The translations under genes and the position numbers were made by a program. Below are positions 1 to 9,352 of a stretch of DNA of 61,966 nt, piece by piece. The number at the start of each line of letters is the position of its first letter. Positions within the stretch are counted from its first letter, which is position 1. The notes beneath the pieces are model-generated. The model did no database searches, was not told the origin of the DNA, and saw only the letters and a list, made by a program, of their open reading frames with translations. Source of the stretch: Pyrinomonadales bacterium (lineage in GTDB: Bacteria > Acidobacteriota > Blastocatellia > Pyrinomonadales > Pyrinomonadaceae). The stretch spans positions 1-61,966 of the forward strand of contig JBBQUS010000032.1 of NCBI GenBank assembly GCA_038212235.1, in the 5' to 3' direction.

Positions 1-45
1 CCACCGCCGCCGCCGCCGCCGCCGCCCGATCCTGACTTATTATGA
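1..45 (+). CDS. 3' end of an upstream CDS (partial), ending in a poly-Pro tail (PPPPPPPPDPDLL*)
   Basis: In-frame (CCG)n run followed by TGA at 43-45 and a strong hairpin immediately downstream. Alternatively the GCC run is Gly-coding on the minus strand. Confidence 0.25.
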   Translation, partial: PPPPPPPPPDPDLL

Positions 46-57
46 TGGGGCGTTGAA

Positions 58-106
58 TGAAGAAGAGGAGCGAGAGATTTAATCTCTCGCTCCTCTTCTT
101 TTTAAT
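58..106 (+). terminator. Rho-independent terminator-like hairpin (about 20-bp perfect stem, then a T run)
   Basis: aagaagaggagcgagagatt / aatctctcgctcctcttctt inverted repeat followed by ttttt. Confidence 0.6.
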
Positions 107-147
107 CAGTTTGCAGCGACTGCAAATTTGTCTGACTCGTCGGCAGC

Positions 148-190
148 AAAAATCCAGCGGCAAGACTTGCCGCTGGATTTTTTTGCTTTT
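148..190. terminator. Bidirectional rho-independent terminator downstream of the minus-strand 2OG oxygenase gene
   Basis: aaaatccagcggcaag-ac-cttgccgctggatttt, a GC-rich 16-bp stem flanked by A/T runs on both sides. Confidence 0.65.
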
Positions 191-270
191 ATTCGGAATT
201 CTTTAAATGAGCGGAATTTGTCAAGATTCGCTATTAACACTTTTATAGAAAACAGCTTTTCAGAATCTAC

Positions 271-873
271 TTACACCGATACTTTTATCTGATTTCCAAA
301 GCGCTGATCTAAATTATCCTGGTATCTTTCATTGAAGCTAAAAAAAACGGCAATCGTGTAGCGTATTCCTTCCGTAACTTCTTTGACCCCGTGTAAGTAT
401 TCTAAAGTTCCGGGAAAAGTAATCAACGTTCCGGCATCGGCCTTCAACTCAAACTGCTGTTTGGGAAAGTGAATGCTTCCGCCTTGATAATCGTTATTTA
501 GGTAGACAACCGCCGCAAAATCTCGCCACGGATAAGGATGCGGCACATCATCCGGATTTTCCTGGTCGGCATGCGGTTCCAATTGATATGTTTGGAGCCA
601 ACGAACCATTTGAAGGTTTTCAGAATAGATAGGTTTCTCGGTTTGCAGGCTTGCCGCCAGAAGGCTTTTCATTCTTTGGCGGGTGTCGAGTAATATTTGC
701 TCGATCTCCGGATTATGAATGCGTTCGAGATTTATGACGCGTCCTGCCCAGAAATCATCGCTTAACGCGCCAAATGTTTCTTCTGCGTTTTCGCAAAAGT
801 CAGTTAATTGACGGCAATAATCAGAGCTTAAAAAATTGGGTTGAATCAATGGAAAAGCAGAAGTGTTATTCAT
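271..873 (-). CDS. 2-oxoglutarate/Fe(II)-dependent dioxygenase, prolyl 4-hydroxylase-like (P4Hc superfamily)
   Basis: H-A-D facial triad (EPHADQ), distal His (LHGV) and 2OG-binding Arg (GIRYTI) in DSBH spacing. 200 aa. Confidence 0.7.
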   Translation of the reverse strand: MNNTSAFPLIQPNFLSSDYCRQLTDFCENAEETFGALSDDFWAGRVINLERIHNPEIEQILLDTRQRMKSLLAASLQTEKPIYSENLQMVRWLQTYQLEPHADQENPDDVPHPYPWRDFAAVVYLNNDYQGGSIHFPKQQFELKADAGTLITFPGTLEYLHGVKEVTEGIRYTIAVFFSFNERYQDNLDQRFGNQIKVSV

Positions 874-1223
874 GAATCTTTTGGCTCACCTTTCAAAACA
901 GATTTGACGATATTTTAGTCAATTTACTGGCGGATAGTTTTTCGAGCAGTTAAGGTGCTGAAAGAATCTTTAACCGGCAATTCCAAAATCTTATCATAGC
1001 GACAAAAACTTAGAAAGCATCTTATTTGTGAGACAGGGCTGATTACTAAATTATTTCGTTTCAGGACTTGGCATTATAAAATGCCCAAGCTTCACGTTAG
1101 ATTAATTCTGTCTTCTTGCTTTATAATTAACGCGGCGTGTTAATATAACCGGCACTTAACGGCGAATCTTTTCTTTAAAATTTCCGCAAGATAAAAATTC
1201 CACTTCTGCTTTTTCAGGCTGTT

Positions 1224-2078
1224 ATGACTGTTGATAATGATTTTGAATATCCCAACTGCCCTTTATGCCAAAGTGAACAAAGAGAAGATAAATATGTAAA
1301 ATTTGGATTACACAAAATAGTGCGTTGTTGTTTATGCCAGGCGTATTATCTGTATCCGCGCTTGACAGAAGATGCGATGCGCCGCGTTTACCTTCAGGAT
1401 GATTATTTTGAAGGAGGTCAGACCGGTTATTCGGACATCAGTTACGCCTTTCAGGAAAAAGCGCTAAGAGCCACTTTCAGACGTTTGATGCGTAGCTTAG
1501 AGAAACGCGGTCTAACCGGAGGATCTTTATTGGAAATCGGATGTGGTTACGGTTTTCTTCTGGAAGAAGCCAAAGAGTTTTATTCCTTGCGCGTCGGTAC
1601 TGAATTTTCATCAAGGGGAGCGCAAATTGCCTCTACGAAGGCCGATAAAATTTTTGAGGGAGGATTGGAAATGCTTCCTCTCGATTTAAAGTTTGACTGC
1701 GTGATTGCGACGCACGTCATTGAACATGTTTATGACCCGCTGGAATTTATCAAAAGCTTGATCAATCACACTAATCGGCACGGCAAGATAGTCCTGGCGG
1801 CTCCTGACATGAACGGACTGCTCAGAAAGTTTTTGGGACATCGTTGGCCATCTTTTAAAATTCCCGAACACGTCACTTATTTCGATTCAACGACGCTTTC
1901 AGCAGTGATGCGGCAAGCAGGATTAAAAAATTTAAACTTGTTGCCTTATCCTCACGCCTTTCCGCTGGCTTTGATAGCTTCAAAATTACATCTCGCACTG
2001 CCCGCGCTCCTGGGCAATATCAAGGTTTGGGTGCCGGCAACGACGGTTGCAATATCGGGGACGGTTTCTCATGACTGA
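1224..2078 (+). CDS. Class I SAM-dependent methyltransferase with an N-terminal Cys4 zinc ribbon
   Basis: Motif I LLEIGCGYGFLLE. N-terminal CPLCQ...CCLCQ. Translationally coupled to the downstream GT2. Confidence 0.75.
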   Translation: MTVDNDFEYPNCPLCQSEQREDKYVKFGLHKIVRCCLCQAYYLYPRLTEDAMRRVYLQDDYFEGGQTGYSDISYAFQEKALRATFRRLMRSLEKRGLTGGSLLEIGCGYGFLLEEAKEFYSLRVGTEFSSRGAQIASTKADKIFEGGLEMLPLDLKFDCVIATHVIEHVYDPLEFIKSLINHTNRHGKIVLAAPDMNGLLRKFLGHRWPSFKIPEHVTYFDSTTLSAVMRQAGLKNLNLLPYPHAFPLALIASKLHLALPALLGNIKVWVPATTVAISGTVSHD

Positions 2079-3051
2079 TATTGATTGCCATAGAAAACCA
2101 ATGATTTCTGTCGTCATGCCGCTTTACTGCGAAGGCAGTCATCTCCGCGCGGTTCTTGCCGATGTCTGCAGCCAGCTTGCCGCAGCAAACGTATCTTACG
2201 AAATAATTTTAGTGGATGACGGTTCGCCCGATAATACATGGGCGATCCTCGATGAAGAAGCAAAAAAGTCAACTGCGATACGCGCAATCCAGTTGAGCAG
2301 AAATTTCGGAAAAGAATTAGCTCTGTGTGCCGGAATAGAGCTGGCGTGTGGGGACGCAATAATAGTGATGGACGGCGATGGACAGCACCCGCCGTCTTTG
2401 TTGCCAAAGATGATTCAGCTGTGGCAGGAAACCGGCGTTGACATCGTCGAAGCAACAAAAACCACGCGCGGCAAGGAATCGTTTTTGAACAAATTGACTG
2501 CCGGATTGTTTTATATTATCTGGAACAAGCTTTCAGGATTTAAATTAAAGGGTGCTTCTGATTTTAAGTTGTTGAACCGAAGAGCTGTTAACGCGTTGCT
2601 CCAGATGGAAGAGCGGAACGTTTTCTTTCGTGGTATGACCGCTTGGCTGGGTTTTAGACGCATTCAAATTTCATTCACCGTCGCCGGACGTCTCAGCGGA
2701 CGCACGGCTTGGTCTCAAATACGACTGATTAACTTGGCTCTAACCGGAATCACTTCATTCTCAACCCTTCCTCTGCATCTTGTCACATTGATGGGCGTGC
2801 TCTTTCTGCTTTTTTCCGTTGTGCTGGGCTTGCAGACACTTTATATAAAATTTTACGGGAAAGGCGTTAGCGGCTTTACAACCGTGATTTTACTTTTGCT
2901 GATTATTGGGAGTTTATTGATGATCAGTCTCGGCATCATCGGCGAGTATTTATCTCGAATTTATGACGAAGTTAAACGCAGACCACGCTATATCATTTCC
3001 CAAACGATTAGAATAAATGGTGAGAATGAAAACCAGAGCTCACGCAGTTGA
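2071..3051 (+). CDS. GT2 polyprenyl-phosphate sugar transferase (ArnC/GtrB/DPM1-like) with C-terminal TM helices
   Basis: VVMPLYCE...ILVDDGSPD...MDGDGQHPP (DXD region) followed by 2-3 TM helices. ATG at 2071 overlaps the MTase stop; an alternative ATG lies at 2101. Confidence 0.8.
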   Translation: MTDIDCHRKPMISVVMPLYCEGSHLRAVLADVCSQLAAANVSYEIILVDDGSPDNTWAILDEEAKKSTAIRAIQLSRNFGKELALCAGIELACGDAIIVMDGDGQHPPSLLPKMIQLWQETGVDIVEATKTTRGKESFLNKLTAGLFYIIWNKLSGFKLKGASDFKLLNRRAVNALLQMEERNVFFRGMTAWLGFRRIQISFTVAGRLSGRTAWSQIRLINLALTGITSFSTLPLHLVTLMGVLFLLFSVVLGLQTLYIKFYGKGVSGFTTVILLLLIIGSLLMISLGIIGEYLSRIYDEVKRRPRYIISQTIRINGENENQSSRS

Positions 3052-3072
3052 CAAAAAATTATTAGATTCAAC

Positions 3073-4896
3073 TCAGTTAGGAATTTCAATCGCAATTTGT
3101 TTTCTGTCGCCGCTGGTAAAGTATATTGTCGCGTTGGGGTGTTGCCGCAGCACCTTTTCTCTGGAAAGCTCCCATAAATCGCTGGAAAGCAGGAGCACGG
3201 CCGGGGCTCGCAGCAGAATCGGCTCGTTGTCATTAAGCAAATGCTCCGGCAGCAATAATTCTACTGTTTGATCAGGATTGGTAAACATTTTAAGCCAATA
3301 CAACCAAGCATTTTCACCGAACCAGAAGTATGGATGCTGTTTGTCCGAGACATAGTAATAATGAGTGTTTGCGACAAATCTTCGGGAATAGACATACCGC
3401 ATGGTCGCACCGGGGGCATATCTCTCCCTCAATCCTCCGCTAATGAAATTGCCGTAATTACTAATGTTTAATGCGACGATGAGGATGGTCACGGCAGTGA
3501 TTATCCGATATTTATAAGTGAGAACCTGTCTTTGACGAGCGACAAACACGGCTATAAATTTGGCAAACTCTTCTACTCCCTTGTACGCGAAGATGATTGC
3601 GTAAGGAAGTAATATGAGCAAACGAGTATAATTAGGATTTTTTGTTGTCAAAAAACTAATAAACAGCCAGACAACAGCGAATTGAGTAATCACGGGAAGA
3701 TACAAATCACGGTTCTTTTTCCGTCTAATTACGGCAAAAACCCCAACCCACAAAAATATACCCGTCAGGAAATCAACAAATCCATATCCGGGATTCCAAT
3801 ACATTGATCCTTCATCGGGTAAATTATTGTTAAAAATAGTTAAGCCTTTGACTGTGTTGCGCAAGACGGCTGTCGGTAGATCATTAACCTTCTCCCATTC
3901 CTGAACAAATTCCCGTCCTTGAGGATAAATAAGCAATTGCTGTTTCGGATAATTTAGAGAATTGCTCGGAGAGTTGTACGACGCAATTAGGATCGGCGCC
4001 GCCGCCAGGAAAAATCCAATTAACGTTGGCAAACCCAGCCTAAAACATTGCTGCAAGAAAAGTTTGCCAACGCCGAATTTGCTAAAACAGTAAATTGCCA
4101 AAAACACAAACCATGCCAGCGGGAGAATCCGAGCCGGATAATACGTGTATAAACTAAATGCTAAGATAGCGCCTCCCGCAAAAAGTTTTCTTGAATTGAT
4201 TTGTCTTAGGCCAGGTATCAAAATGATTAACGATACTAATTGAATTAAAAGGCAATGATTTTCGCGGGTGCTGAGCCGGCTTAGAGCAATTAATGAATGG
4301 CAGCAGCCGAACATAATGGTGGCAAACATCGCAGGCTTCCGCGGAAGAAAAAGACGAAAGAAAAAATAACTGAAAAAGATTGTGCAGATTCCAAAAAAAC
4401 CGTTTACGCGGCGCAAATTTTCGAAATCAACCGCACCTAAAAGGCTGGCGAGGTAGCCGTTAACAACAAAACTCCCTGACGGCAGGTGATAGTAAGTGTC
4501 AGCCAACCCGAACAAATCCGGAGAGGGGCGACTAAGAAGAATTTTACAGACATTGACAACTTCAAGTTCATCACTGCCAATTTGATAGGGCAGATCAAAC
4601 GACAAATATAAATAGAGGGGGGCGCAGGCAAGCGCTATAACCAAAACGAGCGGTGTTTCATTCCAAACATTTAATGATGAAAAATAGGCTTTCTCTGATT
4701 TCGCGAAAACAAAACTGACGACAATTATTGAAAAGCAGAATGAAATGAACAGAGGTGTTGAAAAACCTATCCTGTAATACAAAACACAAAGCAGAGGGTA
4801 GAGAAGAACAAGAGTTATAATACTCATTGCTCGGATGCGTTTTGCTGAACCAGCTGAGTCTGTCAGCCAGCTCTTAACTTTGTCATATGTCATCAT
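3073..4896 (-). CDS. GT-C fold glycosyltransferase (ArnT/PMT, GT39/GT83-like) polytopic membrane protein
   Basis: More than 10 TM helices. Acidic DE motif (GSDELEVV) in the first extracytoplasmic loop. C-terminal soluble domain of about 170 aa. 607 aa. AT-rich. Confidence 0.65.
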   Translation of the reverse strand: MMTYDKVKSWLTDSAGSAKRIRAMSIITLVLLYPLLCVLYYRIGFSTPLFISFCFSIIVVSFVFAKSEKAYFSSLNVWNETPLVLVIALACAPLYLYLSFDLPYQIGSDELEVVNVCKILLSRPSPDLFGLADTYYHLPSGSFVVNGYLASLLGAVDFENLRRVNGFFGICTIFFSYFFFRLFLPRKPAMFATIMFGCCHSLIALSRLSTRENHCLLIQLVSLIILIPGLRQINSRKLFAGGAILAFSLYTYYPARILPLAWFVFLAIYCFSKFGVGKLFLQQCFRLGLPTLIGFFLAAAPILIASYNSPSNSLNYPKQQLLIYPQGREFVQEWEKVNDLPTAVLRNTVKGLTIFNNNLPDEGSMYWNPGYGFVDFLTGIFLWVGVFAVIRRKKNRDLYLPVITQFAVVWLFISFLTTKNPNYTRLLILLPYAIIFAYKGVEEFAKFIAVFVARQRQVLTYKYRIITAVTILIVALNISNYGNFISGGLRERYAPGATMRYVYSRRFVANTHYYYVSDKQHPYFWFGENAWLYWLKMFTNPDQTVELLLPEHLLNDNEPILLRAPAVLLLSSDLWELSREKVLRQHPNATIYFTSGDRKQIAIEIPN

Positions 4897-5005
4897 TTAT
4901 TTTTTGAAGCGTTGCAGTAAAATTTTGCGGAGGAACAAAATGGAAACACTGATGTGGCGTTAAAATCTAGAATTAAAAAATGAGTTTAACAATGGCTGTT
5001 AAAAT

Positions 5006-6091
5006 TTAATCGGCGTTTACTATTTCCACTACCTCGAGAACCAGTTCTCTGTTCCAGCCCCCTGCGACAAATAAGTCAACAATTGCTTCGCCGCTGTAAC
5101 CCTCTCGCATCCTTTCAAGGATATAAAAGAGCATCGCTTTAAAGCTCTCCGAATCCATAAAAGGAAAGTTTGACTGTCTGAGGGCTTCGACATCCAGCGC
5201 TTTTTCAAGTTTACCTTCGTAGCGTAATTTTAATTTTTTTGAAGGGGTTTTGCTGGGGATGCTTGGCTCATTTTGCGGCTGAGGTGAAGCCGTCACAGGG
5301 AGCGACTTCTGATGCTCCGCAAATTTGTTGCCGTAGATATCAACGCCTTTCATATAAAGCAACCCAGGAGCATCTTGATCGTAGTTTGATCGCGCAGTGG
5401 CAAAATCCTGCGTTGCTTTGCGCTCATTTGCGAAGGCTTCGCCGGGCGGATGAAGAGCGATTTGGTAATTATCAATAAAGTGTCGCGGATATGGTAAGAC
5501 GCAGCCGATTGGCGTTCCTTTGGGGAGATAAAAATCTCGATTTGGTGTTGTTACCTTTAGGTTAAAGGTAAAATCCCGCCGTAGTTGATCAGTTTCGACA
5601 ACCGCTGACATATGCATAATTCCTTCAATCGGAAAGTTCGGCGGCTGCGTTACCATCAGGTTGACACCTTTTGGAGTTCGATAAGTCCAGCGATTTTGTA
5701 TTGTCAAAATTCCTGAACCGAAATGGGAACTAATTATTTGATCCTGATTCTCTGGCATCGCGCCCAGTAAATGTACTTTTAAACTTCCGAGATCCAGTTT
5801 ACCGCTCCACCGAACGACAACATCGTGAAGCAGTCGAACTATAAAACCATGCTGGTTCCCGAATGTAATCGGCAGGCAAAAGTAGAAATGATCAACAAAC
5901 CAATCTCGTCCCTTTTGTCCGGCAAGCGGTTCAATCAGTTCAGACGGCAAATGATTAAATCGGTGGTCTTCGGTTAAAACATAAATGGTCTTGTCAGGAA
6001 CATCAACCAGATCGGGAATATTTTCGGAAGGAATGAACGGTTCGGCTGGGCGCTGACCGTAGATGGGTTTTTTCGTCGGCTCTTTACTCAT
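5006..6091 (-). CDS. Hypothetical protein, 361 aa, no recognisable family. Soluble, with an internal low-complexity linker and a small C-terminal domain.
   Basis: Long ORF. ATGA start/stop overlap with the upstream 145-aa ORF. No TM segments. Confidence 0.55.
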   Translation of the reverse strand: MSKEPTKKPIYGQRPAEPFIPSENIPDLVDVPDKTIYVLTEDHRFNHLPSELIEPLAGQKGRDWFVDHFYFCLPITFGNQHGFIVRLLHDVVVRWSGKLDLGSLKVHLLGAMPENQDQIISSHFGSGILTIQNRWTYRTPKGVNLMVTQPPNFPIEGIMHMSAVVETDQLRRDFTFNLKVTTPNRDFYLPKGTPIGCVLPYPRHFIDNYQIALHPPGEAFANERKATQDFATARSNYDQDAPGLLYMKGVDIYGNKFAEHQKSLPVTASPQPQNEPSIPSKTPSKKLKLRYEGKLEKALDVEALRQSNFPFMDSESFKAMLFYILERMREGYSGEAIVDLFVAGGWNRELVLEVVEIVNAD

Positions 6092-6525
6092 TTCAGCTCG
6101 TTATGTCTGGCGAAAAACTTTGGATAAACTCTTCTTTCAAGTGAACTATCGGCGAAGAAAAAAATGTTTTTGTCGCTATTGTCTTCAGTTGCCTCAAAAT
6201 ACATGTAATTAGATTTTTCTTTTTGGCTGGACTCTTTTTCCGCATTCCAAATACTGAGTTTTAAATAGCACTGTTTGGTCAGAATAAAGTCACGCAGCCA
6301 AAGACTGTTATTTTCGCCGAAAAAGTCCGGAAGGATATTTGATTGTTCTTCTCTCCTTTCGTCAGCCGGACCGATAATAGTTCTGGCGCAAACAAACAGA
6401 GGTTCTTTCGGAGGTTTGTTTTCTACAACGTAGCTGCTCAAAAAGAGGTCGTGAACAAAACGTGGATTCGAGGAAACAATAAAACAATTTTCAGCTTTTA
6501 TGACATCGGGAACATCTTTGCTCAT
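6088..6525 (-). CDS. Hypothetical protein, 145 aa, AT-rich. Translationally coupled to the 361-aa ORF.
   Basis: ORF with 4-nt overlap to the downstream gene. GC is clearly lower than the window average. No known motif. Confidence 0.5.
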   Translation of the reverse strand: MSKDVPDVIKAENCFIVSSNPRFVHDLFLSSYVVENKPPKEPLFVCARTIIGPADERREEQSNILPDFFGENNSLWLRDFILTKQCYLKLSIWNAEKESSQKEKSNYMYFEATEDNSDKNIFFFADSSLERRVYPKFFARHNELK

Positions 6526-6610: not shown

Positions 6611-7441
6611 TTAGGCAGTCGGGATTTTTACAAATGGCATTCCGCGCAAAATGACTTTTTGGCGACGGGTCACGCGTTTCGGGTTTTTCTGCGGGTTAAA
6701 GATGTTAAGCGGGCTCGGAATCATCGCCGATAGATAGGCGGCTTCCTGCGGAGATAAATCAGCGGCGCTCTTTTTAAAGTAAAAGCGCGACGCTGCTTCC
6801 GCGCCGTACAGCCCATCGCCCCATTCGATGACGTTGAGATAAATCTCCAAAATTCGGCGTTTCGAGAGATTGCTTTCAAGCGAGCGAGTGACAAAATATT
6901 CGCGAATTTTGCGGGTGAACGAGCGTTCTTCGCTCAAGTAAAGATTTTTCGCCAGCTGCTGCGTGATGGTTGACGCACCGCGTTTGAAATTAGAGGTTTT
7001 CGGGTATCCGAGCGAAGTTAAGATAGTGTCAATAATACTGTCTTTATCAAGATTCGGGAGCTGCCAATCGTTCGGGTCATTGTCGCCTTCTTCTTTGGCT
7101 TCTTTTTCGGCCTCTTTCTGCGCATCTTCCCATGATTTTTGGATGGCGTCCCAGTCAAAACCGTGATGTGTCAAAAAGTTAGTGTCTTCTCCGGCCAGCA
7201 CGGCGCGTTGCAAATTAGTGGAGATTTTATCAATCGGAACCCAAATTTGCTGACGTTTGGGTTCTTTGCCGTCTTTTTTAGCTTCTGACGCGCGATATTC
7301 AATCATCGAAGTCGTCGCGGGATTTTCGGTCCTAAGCTTGGCAATATTCGGAAAGGTGAGAAATTCATAGCCCAGCCAGAAGACAAACGCGCCGATAACA
7401 ATCAGAAAAATTACTTTGAACCAGTACCAAATAAATCTCAT
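6611..7441 (-). CDS. mtgA: Monofunctional biosynthetic peptidoglycan transglycosylase (GT51)
   Basis: N-terminal TM anchor. EDTNFLTHHGFDW and ITQQLAKNLYLS transglycosylase motifs. Carries an acidic insert. Confidence 0.8.
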   Translation of the reverse strand: MRFIWYWFKVIFLIVIGAFVFWLGYEFLTFPNIAKLRTENPATTSMIEYRASEAKKDGKEPKRQQIWVPIDKISTNLQRAVLAGEDTNFLTHHGFDWDAIQKSWEDAQKEAEKEAKEEGDNDPNDWQLPNLDKDSIIDTILTSLGYPKTSNFKRGASTITQQLAKNLYLSEERSFTRKIREYFVTRSLESNLSKRRILEIYLNVIEWGDGLYGAEAASRFYFKKSAADLSPQEAAYLSAMIPSPLNIFNPQKNPKRVTRRQKVILRGMPFVKIPTA

Positions 7442-7530: not shown

Positions 7531-9016
7531 GCATTTTCGCGACAATTTTGCCTGAACTCATGACGCCCGGAAGTCCTGCGCCCGGATGCGTTCCCGCCCC
7601 GACAAAATAAAGATTCGAAATGTCTTCGGAGACATTATGCGGGCGAAAATAAGCCGATTGCATCAAGGTCGGTTCGACTCCGAAAGCGTTGCCCGCGTAG
7701 CTGTTAAGAGTATCGCGAAAATGGAGCGGATCAATATAAGTTTCCGTGACGATATGTTGTTCCAAATCAGGCATATAGTTGTCTGAGAGGAATTTGATGA
7801 TCGAGTCGCGATACGGTTTTGCCGCTGTCGTCCAGTCAACGTTGCCGCCAAGATTCGGAACGGGCGAGAGGACGTACCAGCTATCACAACCCAGCGGAGC
7901 CAAACTTTCGTCGGTCGCAGTCGGGCGATGCAGATAGAGCGAAAAATCTTCCGCCAGAATTTTCCTGTTAAAAATGTCGTCAAGCAAGCCTTTGTAGCGC
8001 TTCCCCATAATTATTTCGTGATGCGCCATGTTTTCGTAACGGCGATTAGTACCAAAATAAATGACGAACAGCGACATCGAAAAGCGCAGCTTTTTAATCC
8101 GCGCGTCGGTGTTTTTGCGACGATATTTGTGGTCAATCAGGTTTAAATAAGTAAAACCGACATCAGCATTTGAAACGACGGCATCGGCGGGCAAAAAATC
8201 GCCGTTCTTTAGGTAAACGCCGGTTGCTTTTCTGGTTTTATCATCAATGAAAATCCGGTCAACTTCGGCTTCGAGAAAAATTTCGCCGCCGATGTCCAGA
8301 AACAGTTCAGATAAACCTCTGACCAAGGCTCCGGTTCCGCCCATCGCAAACCAGACGCCGAATTCCTGTTCCAGCCGATGAATCATCGAGTAAATCGAGG
8401 TCGCTTCAAAAGGATTGCCGCCGATCAGCAGCGGATGAAAACTAAAAGCCTGCTGCAGACGCTCGTCTTTAAAATATTTGGCGGCAAATTGAACGACCGA
8501 ACGATCCGAGCGCAGTTTAATCATCTGCGGCACAACGCGGAGCATATCGGTCATTTTGGTAAACGGCTGATCAATCAATTCAAATCCGACACGGTAAATC
8601 TCGCCCAAATCGCGGGCAAATTTTTTGTAGCCGGCGACGTCGTCCGGGTTAAATTTCCGAATTTGCGCGAGCAGATTTTCCTTGTCGTCGTTGTAATTAA
8701 AGACAGCGCCATCGGGAAAACGAATGTTATAAAACGGATCAATTTTAACCAGCCGAACGTAATCCGCTGTTTTCCTGCCGGCAACCTCAAACATTTCGTC
8801 AATCAGCCACGGCGCGGTAATAATGGTCGGACCGCCGTCAAAAACAAAACCGTCCTGCTCATAAACGTACGCCCGCCCGCCTGGTTTATCGCGTTTTTCG
8901 ATGATCGTGACTTGATGTCCCTGGGCTTGCAGACGAATCGCCGCTGAAAGCCCGCCAAAACCGCTCCCGATAACAATAATTTTCACTAATTCTCCCCTGC
9001 TTGTTCGATTGTCCAA
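7517..9016 (-). CDS. Phytoene desaturase family FAD-dependent oxidoreductase (CrtI/CrtD-like)
   Basis: KIIVIGSGFGGLSAAIRL dinucleotide-binding motif. About 500 aa. CrtI-family conserved blocks. The annotated start is TTG; an in-frame GTG (V of VKIIVIGSG, about 8985) gives the canonical N-terminus. Confidence 0.8.
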   Translation of the reverse strand: MDNRTSRGELVKIIVIGSGFGGLSAAIRLQAQGHQVTIIEKRDKPGGRAYVYEQDGFVFDGGPTIITAPWLIDEMFEVAGRKTADYVRLVKIDPFYNIRFPDGAVFNYNDDKENLLAQIRKFNPDDVAGYKKFARDLGEIYRVGFELIDQPFTKMTDMLRVVPQMIKLRSDRSVVQFAAKYFKDERLQQAFSFHPLLIGGNPFEATSIYSMIHRLEQEFGVWFAMGGTGALVRGLSELFLDIGGEIFLEAEVDRIFIDDKTRKATGVYLKNGDFLPADAVVSNADVGFTYLNLIDHKYRRKNTDARIKKLRFSMSLFVIYFGTNRRYENMAHHEIIMGKRYKGLLDDIFNRKILAEDFSLYLHRPTATDESLAPLGCDSWYVLSPVPNLGGNVDWTTAAKPYRDSIIKFLSDNYMPDLEQHIVTETYIDPLHFRDTLNSYAGNAFGVEPTLMQSAYFRPHNVSEDISNLYFVGAGTHPGAGLPGVMSSGKIVAKMLTQQ

Positions 9017-9136
9017 TCCTCGACTTTTAGGTTTGGAATGTTTTCAAAATTTCGCAAATTGCGCGACAATAACAGCATATCGTTCGCCAAAACGATAGAA
9101 GCTATTTTTAAGTCCATTGAAGCCACACCGAGGCAT

Positions 9137-9352
9137 CTATTCCTCGTCAAATTCATCTTCAACTTTTGTATTAATTCGGTATTCCCGCCCCAGACGCATC
9201 GCTTTCTCATACACTTCGTCATCGGCAAACGTCCCTTGAATTTGCTTCCACCAAGGTTCTTCGGCTTTCGTGTTTTTCTTGATCTCCGTTTGTAAGTCGG
9301 CGACTATTGCTTCCAAATTTGCAACTCGCGTTTCCAGTTCTTGCGTATTCAT
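9137..9352 (-). CDS. Small acidic coiled-coil protein, 71 aa, hypothetical
   Basis: ORF in the same orientation, sitting between the ACAD and crtI-like genes. Charged, helical composition. Confidence 0.4.
   Translation of the reverse strand: MNTQELETRVANLEAIVADLQTEIKKNTKAEEPWWKQIQGTFADDEVYEKAMRLGREYRINTKVEDEFDEE

Follow-up and report, generated by a model that had tools for sequence, protein, structure and literature searches.

In the collagen-modifying P3H1-CRTAP-cyclophilin B complex, as in the collagen prolyl 4-hydroxylase (P4H) α2β2 with protein disulfide isomerase (PDI), the hydroxylase has an obligatory partner that is not itself an oxygenase, and the small monomer-type P4Hs of algae, plants and chloroviruses act on poly-proline or proline-rich repeats. 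To our knowledge no DUF6065-like partner has been described for the algal, plant and chlorovirus P4H systems. The locus compared with these systems here consists of two overlapping genes, orfA and orfB, in a stretch of 61,966 nucleotides of a Pyrinomonadales bacterium (assembly GCA_038212235.1, contig JBBQUS010000032.1), with the whole of this stretch being referred to as the window. The product of orfB belongs to the Pfam family DUF6065 (PF19541), and across the related loci compared the gene that DUF6065 is conserved together with encodes a small 2-oxoglutarate (2OG)-Fe(II) oxygenase of the prolyl 3-hydroxylase (P3H)/P4H type. The pair in the window is a peripheral member of this DUF6065-oxygenase module.

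The DUF6065-linked oxygenases match P3H1 best, and the tetratricopeptide repeat (TPR) and cyclophilin modules of the collagen hydroxylase complexes likewise occur in fusions with DUF6065. However, the partner in the collagen complexes has a TPR/CRTAP or thioredoxin/PDI fold, whereas DUF6065 is predicted to have a dUTPase fold; the oxygenase of the module is minimal, with 170–200 amino acids; and the substrates of the collagen enzymes are Gly-X-Y repeats, in contrast to the poly-proline runs that are the putative substrates of the module. The Cr-P4H-1, PBCV-1 vP4H and HPAT/GT95 systems are closer in that their P4H is a similarly small monomer-type enzyme, with the PBCV-1 P4H being among the structures matched. 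A further theme shared with algal, plant and chlorovirus hydroxyproline O-glycosylation is seen in fusions of DUF6065 to a domain of the HPAT (hydroxyproline O-arabinosyltransferase) family and in the nucleotide-sugar and glycosyltransferase genes of the viral loci, although the module differs in being prokaryotic or phage-encoded and cytoplasmic, and its HPAT matches are marginal.

Two further groups may be compared with respect to the predicted fold. The homotrimeric dUTPases (EC 3.6.1.23) and dCTP deaminases (PF00692, PF22769) share 6–14% identity with DUF6065, their catalytic motifs I–V are not conserved in it, the DUF6065 domain is about twice their size and its gene context differs. The herpesvirus dUTPase-related proteins (HCMV pp71/UL82, MHV-68 ORF10) come from eukaryotic viruses and are neither related to DUF6065 in sequence nor linked to hydroxylases.

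orfB and the DUF6065 family

The features of the gene pair and of the oxygenase gene of the window are as follows.

6088–6525, minus strand: orfA, 145 amino acids, a small, predicted all-β, cytoplasmic protein of the rare and uncatalogued orfA/F2 family, the genes of which in every case immediately precede DUF6065 genes of a single clade
6088–6091, minus strand: ATGA, in which the TGA stop codon of orfA overlaps the ATG start codon of orfB
5006–6091, minus strand: orfB, 361 amino acids, a DUF6065 protein extended at its C-terminus
5282–6034, minus strand: DUF6065 core of orfB (residues ~20–270), mostly β, with a predicted dUTPase-like fold and the invariant motifs
5222–5281, minus strand: flexible Pro/Ser/Gln-rich linker of orfB (residues ~271–290), predicted local distance difference test (pLDDT) score below 50
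5009–5221, minus strand: predicted C-terminal five-helix domain of orfB (residues 291–361), pLDDT 82–94 over residues 291–360
271–873, minus strand: P3H/P4H-type 2OG-Fe(II) oxygenase, 200 amino acids (PF13640, 40.8 bits, cutoff 27), the putative functional partner of orfB

The DUF6065 match of orfB spans residues 57–239 and scores 112.8 bits, with the cutoff at 26.6 (E = 2.4e-32). The 312 homologues identified mostly have 243–270 amino acids. An alignment of 43 members of the family contains 31 invariant residues, six of them arginines, and all 31 are present in orfB. These residues cluster in the motifs SHFGxGxxTIQ, RTPxGxN, PPN, ETDxLRRDFTFN and PYPR, with an HQ motif likewise found in orfB. 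The first-pass annotation, made from the letters of the window, had described this protein as belonging to no family and carrying no motif, which does not hold. No sequence-level relatives of orfB were found in the PDB and no match was obtained by tblastn against the INPHARED phage collection.

An AlphaFold2 (AF2) model of orfB was obtained with a pLDDT of 83. Its DUF6065 core appears to be a highly diverged dUTPase-fold domain from which the canonical dUTPase motifs have been lost, and is not a dUTPase. A dUTPase-like β-fold was found for orfB, and no match to the dUTPase family PF00692 was detected. The profile search of the PDB with orfB returned no dUTPase at E ≤ 10, and the comparison of orfB by hhalign with three dUTPases gave E = 0.09. 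A divergent viral DUF6065 paralogue showed a sub-threshold match to the Pfam dUTPase family (E = 1.2e-3) in the motif III region. With no significant sequence match for orfB itself and this sub-threshold one for the paralogue, the domain is read as a very diverged dUTPase fold without the catalytic motifs.

Compared with other DUF6065 proteins, orfB carries an additional linker of approximately 25 residues and a helical domain of 70 residues, an extension which is confined to about ten close relatives, and it is preceded by orfA instead of by an oxygenase gene. The linker sequence varies among the orthologues in the alignment. The helical domain is probably a homologue of a stand-alone helical protein of 70–90 amino acids, here termed F24, that has been fused to orfB; the hhalign comparison of the two gave E = 1.2e-4 (controls 0.01 or worse), and F24 as a query matched the C-terminal domain of the orthologue at locus L061 at 3e-4. 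The locus is a new architectural variant (orfA and DUF6065 fused to an F24-like domain, with a distal oxygenase) of a widespread uncharacterised module, for which the literature searched yielded no paper.

It should also be noted that P0084, a DUF6065 homologue of 455 amino acids, has among its precomputed Pfam domains an N-terminal VIT1 domain (PF01988, vacuolar iron transporter family), which could reflect either a fusion related to iron or an error of gene calling.

The partner oxygenase

The comparison covered 142 related loci, including 60 genome loci and 80 viral loci, the latter having been fetched from the 327 IMG/VR contigs with DUF6065 relatives, and neighbourhoods were analysed with our own simple open reading frame (ORF) caller. 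A tblastn census of 62 loci showed the oxygenase of about 200 amino acids in 33, namely L061, the window and 31 of the 60 genome loci. Where present in the genome loci it mostly lies immediately upstream of DUF6065, and in 68 of the 80 viral loci the same oxygenase subfamily adjoins DUF6065 or lies within a few kb of it. Two independent fusions of the two proteins in opposite orders were also found, DUF6065-2OG at L004 and 2OG-DUF6065 at L134. F24 precedes the oxygenase in 22 loci and is seen in proteobacterial cassettes.

The oxygenase of the window is 41–48% identical to the cassette oxygenases and has an intact HxD...H...R set, with residues H101, D103, H161 and R171 being invariant across eleven cassette oxygenases. 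When submitted as a single sequence against the PDB it matched only prolyl hydroxylases, with P3H1 at 2.3e-9. The oxygenase profile identified human P3H1 (1.2e-12), Bacillus anthracis P4H (1.6e-5), PBCV-1 P4H (1.3e-3) and then PiuC among PDB entries, with no TET/JBP and no AlkB protein. In the window this gene lies on the same strand as orfB and 4.1 kb downstream of it, with genes for a GT-C-like protein, a family 2 glycosyltransferase (GT2) and a methyltransferase between them. The spacing of the oxygenase is kept at L061, where the GT2 gene shares this strand and another gene takes the place of the methyltransferase gene. No connection of the pair to this conserved partner at 271–873 had been made in the first-pass annotation.

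Four of the IMG/VR loci (L076, L078, L095 and L132) contain arrays, each with three paralogous P4H-type oxygenases and two tandem DUF6065 paralogues, which suggests a diversification of the module within phages.

Proline-related fusions and viral context

Fusions of an HPAT-family domain to DUF6065 were found at four Planctomycetota loci; two of the four were scanned, giving 24.2 and 29.5 bits against the Pfam cutoff of 23.9. A fusion in Planktothrix joins two DUF6065 repeats to a cyclophilin peptidyl-prolyl isomerase, and a further architecture combines DUF6065 with TPR arrays. Within the viral loci, 25 ORFs with 7–32 consecutive prolines were detected in 24 of the 80, and 20 of these ORFs directly adjoin the oxygenase/DUF6065 block against an expected 33% (permutation p < 1e-4). 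The viral poly-proline ORFs fall into 13 unrelated families. Of the bacterial loci, L004 encodes an SdrD/Cna-type adhesin of 2264 amino acids with a poly-proline run near the fusion gene, and at L021 a poly-proline ORF abuts the oxygenase. The order which recurs in the viral loci is tail fibre, poly-proline protein, oxygenase, DUF6065, methyltransferase, nucleotide-sugar epimerase/dehydratase and GT7 glycosyltransferase. No paper on a phage P4H with poly-proline was found in the literature searched, and the association in bacteria and phages of a dUTPase-fold family with poly-proline proteins and prolyl hydroxylases is apparently undescribed.

One family of phage proteins, V9 (L097–L104, L143 and others in IMG/VR), has 160–370 amino acids and up to three runs of 13–32 prolines, separated by conserved Gly/Tyr/Asn-rich modules. 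Its members carry no family annotation, and their genes sit between a tail-fibre gene with a Peptidase_S74 C-terminus and the oxygenase gene.

A different context was observed at L065–L069, for example at positions 705–7358 of L066, where genes for a GT1, an IMPDH/GMP-reductase-like protein, a Metallophos protein and a short adenylosuccinate synthetase precede two tandem DUF6065 genes. The adenylosuccinate synthetase homologue has 330 amino acids, a size like that of PurZ, and one DUF6065 copy shows a weak Pfam dUTPase match. This block may represent a role of some DUF6065 members in nucleotide metabolism.

orfA and the F2 family

No match to orfA was found in Pfam, NCBIfam, PHROGs, PADLOC or the PDB, so its earlier description as a protein without a family stands with regard to catalogued families. 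Seven close homologues (66–80% identity) were found. An exhaustive search of 1.84 billion representatives with a profile of the orfA alignment returned only its own cluster (one 50%-identity representative cluster), and a word-index search with a combined alignment of orfA and F2 returned 12 proteins only. Here F2 denotes the proteins of 125–145 amino acids whose genes immediately precede DUF6065 in Cyanobacteria, in Obscuribacterales and in one bin of Actinobacteria. Comparison of orfA with F2 by hhalign gave a probability of 95.6% and E = 1.2e-8 over 90 columns (control comparisons E 0.2–0.9). The residues R48, R58, E60, N63, D79 and F110 are conserved between them, with no conserved His or Cys, and orfA shares with the family its size, its position upstream of DUF6065, the overlap with the DUF6065 start and these conserved residues. 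In the neighbourhood analysis of the 60 genome loci a distant orfA homologue was also found upstream of a 52%-identical DUF6065 in a Bdellovibrionales metagenome-assembled genome. The AF2 model of orfA was poor (pLDDT 45) and unusable.

In a neighbour-joining tree built without support values, every DUF6065 linked to orfA or F2 belongs to a single clade. It is concluded that orfA is a fast-evolving small β-protein marking a DUF6065 clade in which it has replaced the adjacent oxygenase gene.

Several other origins were considered for these small proteins. Four identities of orfA were rejected on hhalign E values of 0.42–0.88: a degenerate form of the 2OG oxygenase, a domain like that of dUTPases, a fragment of DUF6065 and a domain like F24. 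Also rejected was a relationship of orfA, F24 or the C-terminal domain of orfB to the small ORFs flanking the viral pairs (E 0.01–0.9, comparisons which served also as negative controls).

At five loci of Drouetiella and 'Cyanobacteria bacterium SZAS-4' (L015, L018, L020, L023 and L058), several genes recur near the F2-DUF6065 pair. They encode a protein of 845 amino acids that combines a PhyH-type dioxygenase with Methyltransf_28, a membrane protein with an HTTM domain, a weakly DUF5819-like protein, a HAD-like protein of 570 amino acids and a small Gly/Tyr-rich secreted protein. These surroundings may form a larger clade-specific gene cluster.

Coupling, selection and composition of the pair

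Both genes lie on the minus strand, with orfA upstream and orfB downstream, and the four nucleotides ATGA at 6088–6091 are shared by the stop codon of the first and the start codon of the second, an arrangement indicating translational coupling. The same junction is kept at six loci from different phyla (L061, L005, L012, L017, L019 and L020). The ratio of nonsynonymous to synonymous substitution rates (dN/dS) against an 87%-identical orthologue was 0.13 for orfA and 0.04 for orfB, and orfA has 63 invariant positions across seven orthologues, in each of which its frame is intact. Because of the low dN/dS and the retention of start codons and N-termini in the orthologues, both are real genes, and they are under purifying selection. 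No signal peptides or transmembrane segments were predicted in orfA, orfB or the oxygenase (the maximum 19-residue Kyte-Doolittle means for orfA and orfB being 0.72 and 1.12), and the three proteins are therefore considered to be cytoplasmic.

Much of the first-pass description of the pair was thus borne out: the two ORFs of 145 and 361 amino acids, their ATGA overlap, the lack of transmembrane segments and the linker and C-terminal helical domain of the longer protein (seen as a low-confidence linker and five helices at 291–360). Its suggestion of an undescribed accessory function is retained in so far as the pair is real, coupled and conserved with no experimentally known function, while the family, fold and partner need correcting. 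The claim that the pair is strongly AT-rich relative to its neighbours is borne out only partly. The GC content is 38.6% in orfA and 45.5% in orfB, with the window averaging 48.2%, and the pair is at the 9th percentile among windows of the same size; the neighbours are of similar composition, with 42.4% for the GT-C-like gene, 43.1% for the 2OG oxygenase gene and 47.1% for mtgA.

The block from position 1 to 6500, from the 2OG oxygenase gene through orfA, has a GC content of 0.35–0.46 against the window mean of 0.48, and could be a horizontally acquired or envelope-glycosylation island. Scans for promoters and terminators gave no signal between the genes above the shuffle expectation, and the Rfam scan of the window gave no match.

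Neighbouring genes and synteny

The genes on either side of the pair, the location of which between mtgA and a GT-C-type gene on one strand had been recognised correctly, are as follows.

6611–7441, minus strand: mtgA (TIGR02070, 229.8 bits)
3073–4896, minus strand: GT-C-like membrane protein, 607 amino acids (PMT_2, 22.5 bits, below the cutoff of 26.1)

The order amine oxidase, mtgA, orfA, orfB and PMT_2-like gene is kept in three close orthologues. The GT-C-like gene is syntenic only in the close orthologues L061, L145 and L146 and is absent from the context of L062, with the mtgA/GT-C synteny as a whole being restricted to relatives of at least 82% identity. In the Bdellovibrionales-like relative of 52% identity the orfA-DUF6065 pair adjoins a peroxiredoxin gene, and there is no mtgA, GT-C or oxygenase gene within 10 kb downstream; upstream, coverage extends for about 5 kb. 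Because the synteny is so limited and the pair is kept beside the peroxiredoxin gene, it is the pair and not its neighbours that forms the conserved unit, with both ORFs being kept in the orthologues. That mtgA or the GT-C gene is the meaningful genomic partner is contradicted by this recurrence in a wholly different context.

The segment between the GT-C-like gene and the oxygenase gene varies between close relatives. In the window it contains GT2 and methyltransferase genes on the opposite strand (1224–3051, plus strand), at L061 (13148–15664) a GT2 gene in the same orientation as its neighbours with an unrelated gene of 390 amino acids after it, and at L145 (5432–7193) a gene of 245 amino acids and a reversed GT2 gene. 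In the MtgA homologue the Transgly/TIGR02070 match falls in two stretches, split by a Lys/Glu/Asp-rich insertion of about 50 residues (residues ~95–145), which is unusual for a monofunctional transglycosylase. Two overlapping ORFs of 71 and 80 amino acids on the minus strand (8986–9352), between the amine-oxidase-like and acyl-CoA dehydrogenase genes, could be a small two-gene cassette or the remnant of one.

Proposed role and alternatives

On balance it seems somewhat more likely than not that orfA and orfB encode uncharacterised cytoplasmic partners in proline hydroxylation, perhaps together with glycosylation. The components of this reading are of differing strength. DUF6065 likely acts in the same pathway as the hydroxylase, a protein proline is the more probable substrate of this pathway, and a catalytic function of DUF6065 is slightly favoured over a purely scaffolding one. 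In the mechanism envisaged, orfA and orfB would be produced in a constant ratio and assemble into a cytoplasmic complex serving the pathway of the hydroxylase on proline-rich or poly-proline proteins, with the C-terminal helical domain of orfB possibly taking over the job of the separate proteobacterial F24. DUF6065 would act with the hydroxylase or immediately after it, and the old nucleotide pocket, with the invariant ETDxLRRDFTFN hairpin and the six invariant arginines, may bind an anionic or nucleotide-linked ligand. Its task could then be to alter the hydroxyproline just formed, for instance by transferring a glycosyl group to it from UDP- or dTDP-sugars, or else to present the substrate as an obligatory subunit, analogous to PDI or CRTAP in the collagen hydroxylases. 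A bolder version, in which DUF6065 is a new enzyme class on the dUTPase fold that uses a nucleotide-linked donor, such as a UDP- or dTDP-sugar held by the former pocket for uracil nucleotides, to modify hydroxyproline made by the partner hydroxylase in the poly-proline tracts of phage tail-fibre-associated proteins and bacterial adhesins, a hitherto unknown prokaryotic and phage hydroxyproline glycosylation or something similar, with orfA as a clade-specific specificity or regulatory subunit, is speculative and regarded as a long shot.

A number of observations weigh against a role in proline hydroxylation. The oxygenase of the window is not adjacent to the pair, as it mostly is elsewhere, and the other loci of the orfA/F2 clade have no P4H-type oxygenase within 8 kb, except for a weak match at L023; since the oxygenase is usually not adjacent there, function in this clade may have diverged. 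No poly-proline ORF was found near the pair in the window, the HPAT matches barely exceed the Pfam cutoff, and for several putative glycosyltransferases of the viral loci no family was matched. Translational coupling is the only ground for the proposed complex, and no usable structural model of orfA was obtained. No paper mentioning DUF6065 was found in the literature searched. Finally, the dUTPase fold and the viral subgroup found amid purine-nucleotide genes (IMPDH-like, PurA/PurZ-like and Metallophos) favour a nucleotide substrate.

These last points belong to the main rival explanation, which is considered unlikely. According to it DUF6065 would retain an ancestral function of binding or hydrolysing a (deoxy)nucleotide and, together with the oxygenase and glycosyltransferases, would modify nucleotides or DNA bases, in the manner of phage hypermodification, or sanitise nucleotide pools, with orfA as a regulator or inhibitor. 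The predicted dUTPase fold would suit such a role, but the canonical dUTPase motifs are gone, and both the lack of a PF00692 match for orfB and the hhalign value of 0.09 obtained with the dUTPases count against it. The six invariant arginines would fit phosphate binding, and the family is abundant on viral contigs (the 327 of IMG/VR, and phrog_7084). The tandem DUF6065 genes that follow IMPDH/GMP-reductase-like, Metallophos and PurZ-sized genes at L065–L069, with their one weak dUTPase match, also agree with it; however, phage auxiliary genes form islands, and the adjacency of a single subgroup to purine genes may be incidental. Weak Tet_JBP matches on the oxygenases (15.3 and 22 bits) fall far under the cutoff of 34.9, and the oxygenase profile matches, among these substrate classes, only protein prolyl hydroxylases. 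The cyclophilin, TPR and HPAT-type fusions and the significant adjacency of poly-proline ORFs point instead to protein substrates.

An accessory role in the cell envelope, in which the pair serves either mtgA in the synthesis of peptidoglycan glycan chains or the GT-C and GT2 proteins in polyprenyl-sugar glycosylation, is improbable. It would account for the synteny from the amine oxidase gene to the PMT_2-like gene in the three close orthologues, for the common strand and short gaps with no promoter or terminator signal between the genes, and for the lower GC content of the entire 1–6.5 kb block relative to the rest of the window. That synteny is nevertheless confined to close relatives, the 52%-identity pair lies beside a peroxiredoxin gene with no mtgA, GT-C or GT2 gene, and neither mtgA nor GT-C is a recurrent neighbour in any of the 60 genome and 80 viral loci. 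The cytoplasmic prediction for orfA, orfB and the oxygenase also argues against this role. A toxin-antitoxin or anti-phage defence pair, or a spurious orfA, is highly improbable and was rejected as to its defence and toxin-antitoxin forms, for although a small overlapping two-gene cassette recurs in varied contexts, orfA has very few homologues and orfB gives a weak HicB match (E = 0.04), that match is sub-cutoff (14.3 bits against 21) and lies within the disordered linker, PADLOC has no match for either protein, DUF6065 mostly occurs without orfA and with the oxygenase instead, and the dN/dS, invariant positions and intact frames of orfA oppose its being spurious.

Significance

If the involvement of DUF6065 in proline hydroxylation is correct, a family detected in many phyla of bacteria and on over 300 contigs of viruses would gain a testable role beside prolyl hydroxylases, and, if the inferred fold holds, it would represent a further re-use of the dUTPase fold. 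Within the window, orfA and orfB would be tied to the oxygenase at 271–873 and not to peptidoglycan synthesis. Hydroxylation, and perhaps glycosylation, of the poly-proline segments of tail-fibre-associated proteins and adhesins would then take place in phages and bacteria as well, a proline chemistry hitherto associated with eukaryotes and giant viruses. Some of the many auxiliary genes of aquatic phages that are annotated as '2OG-Fe(II) oxygenase' and lack an explanation might also be accounted for.

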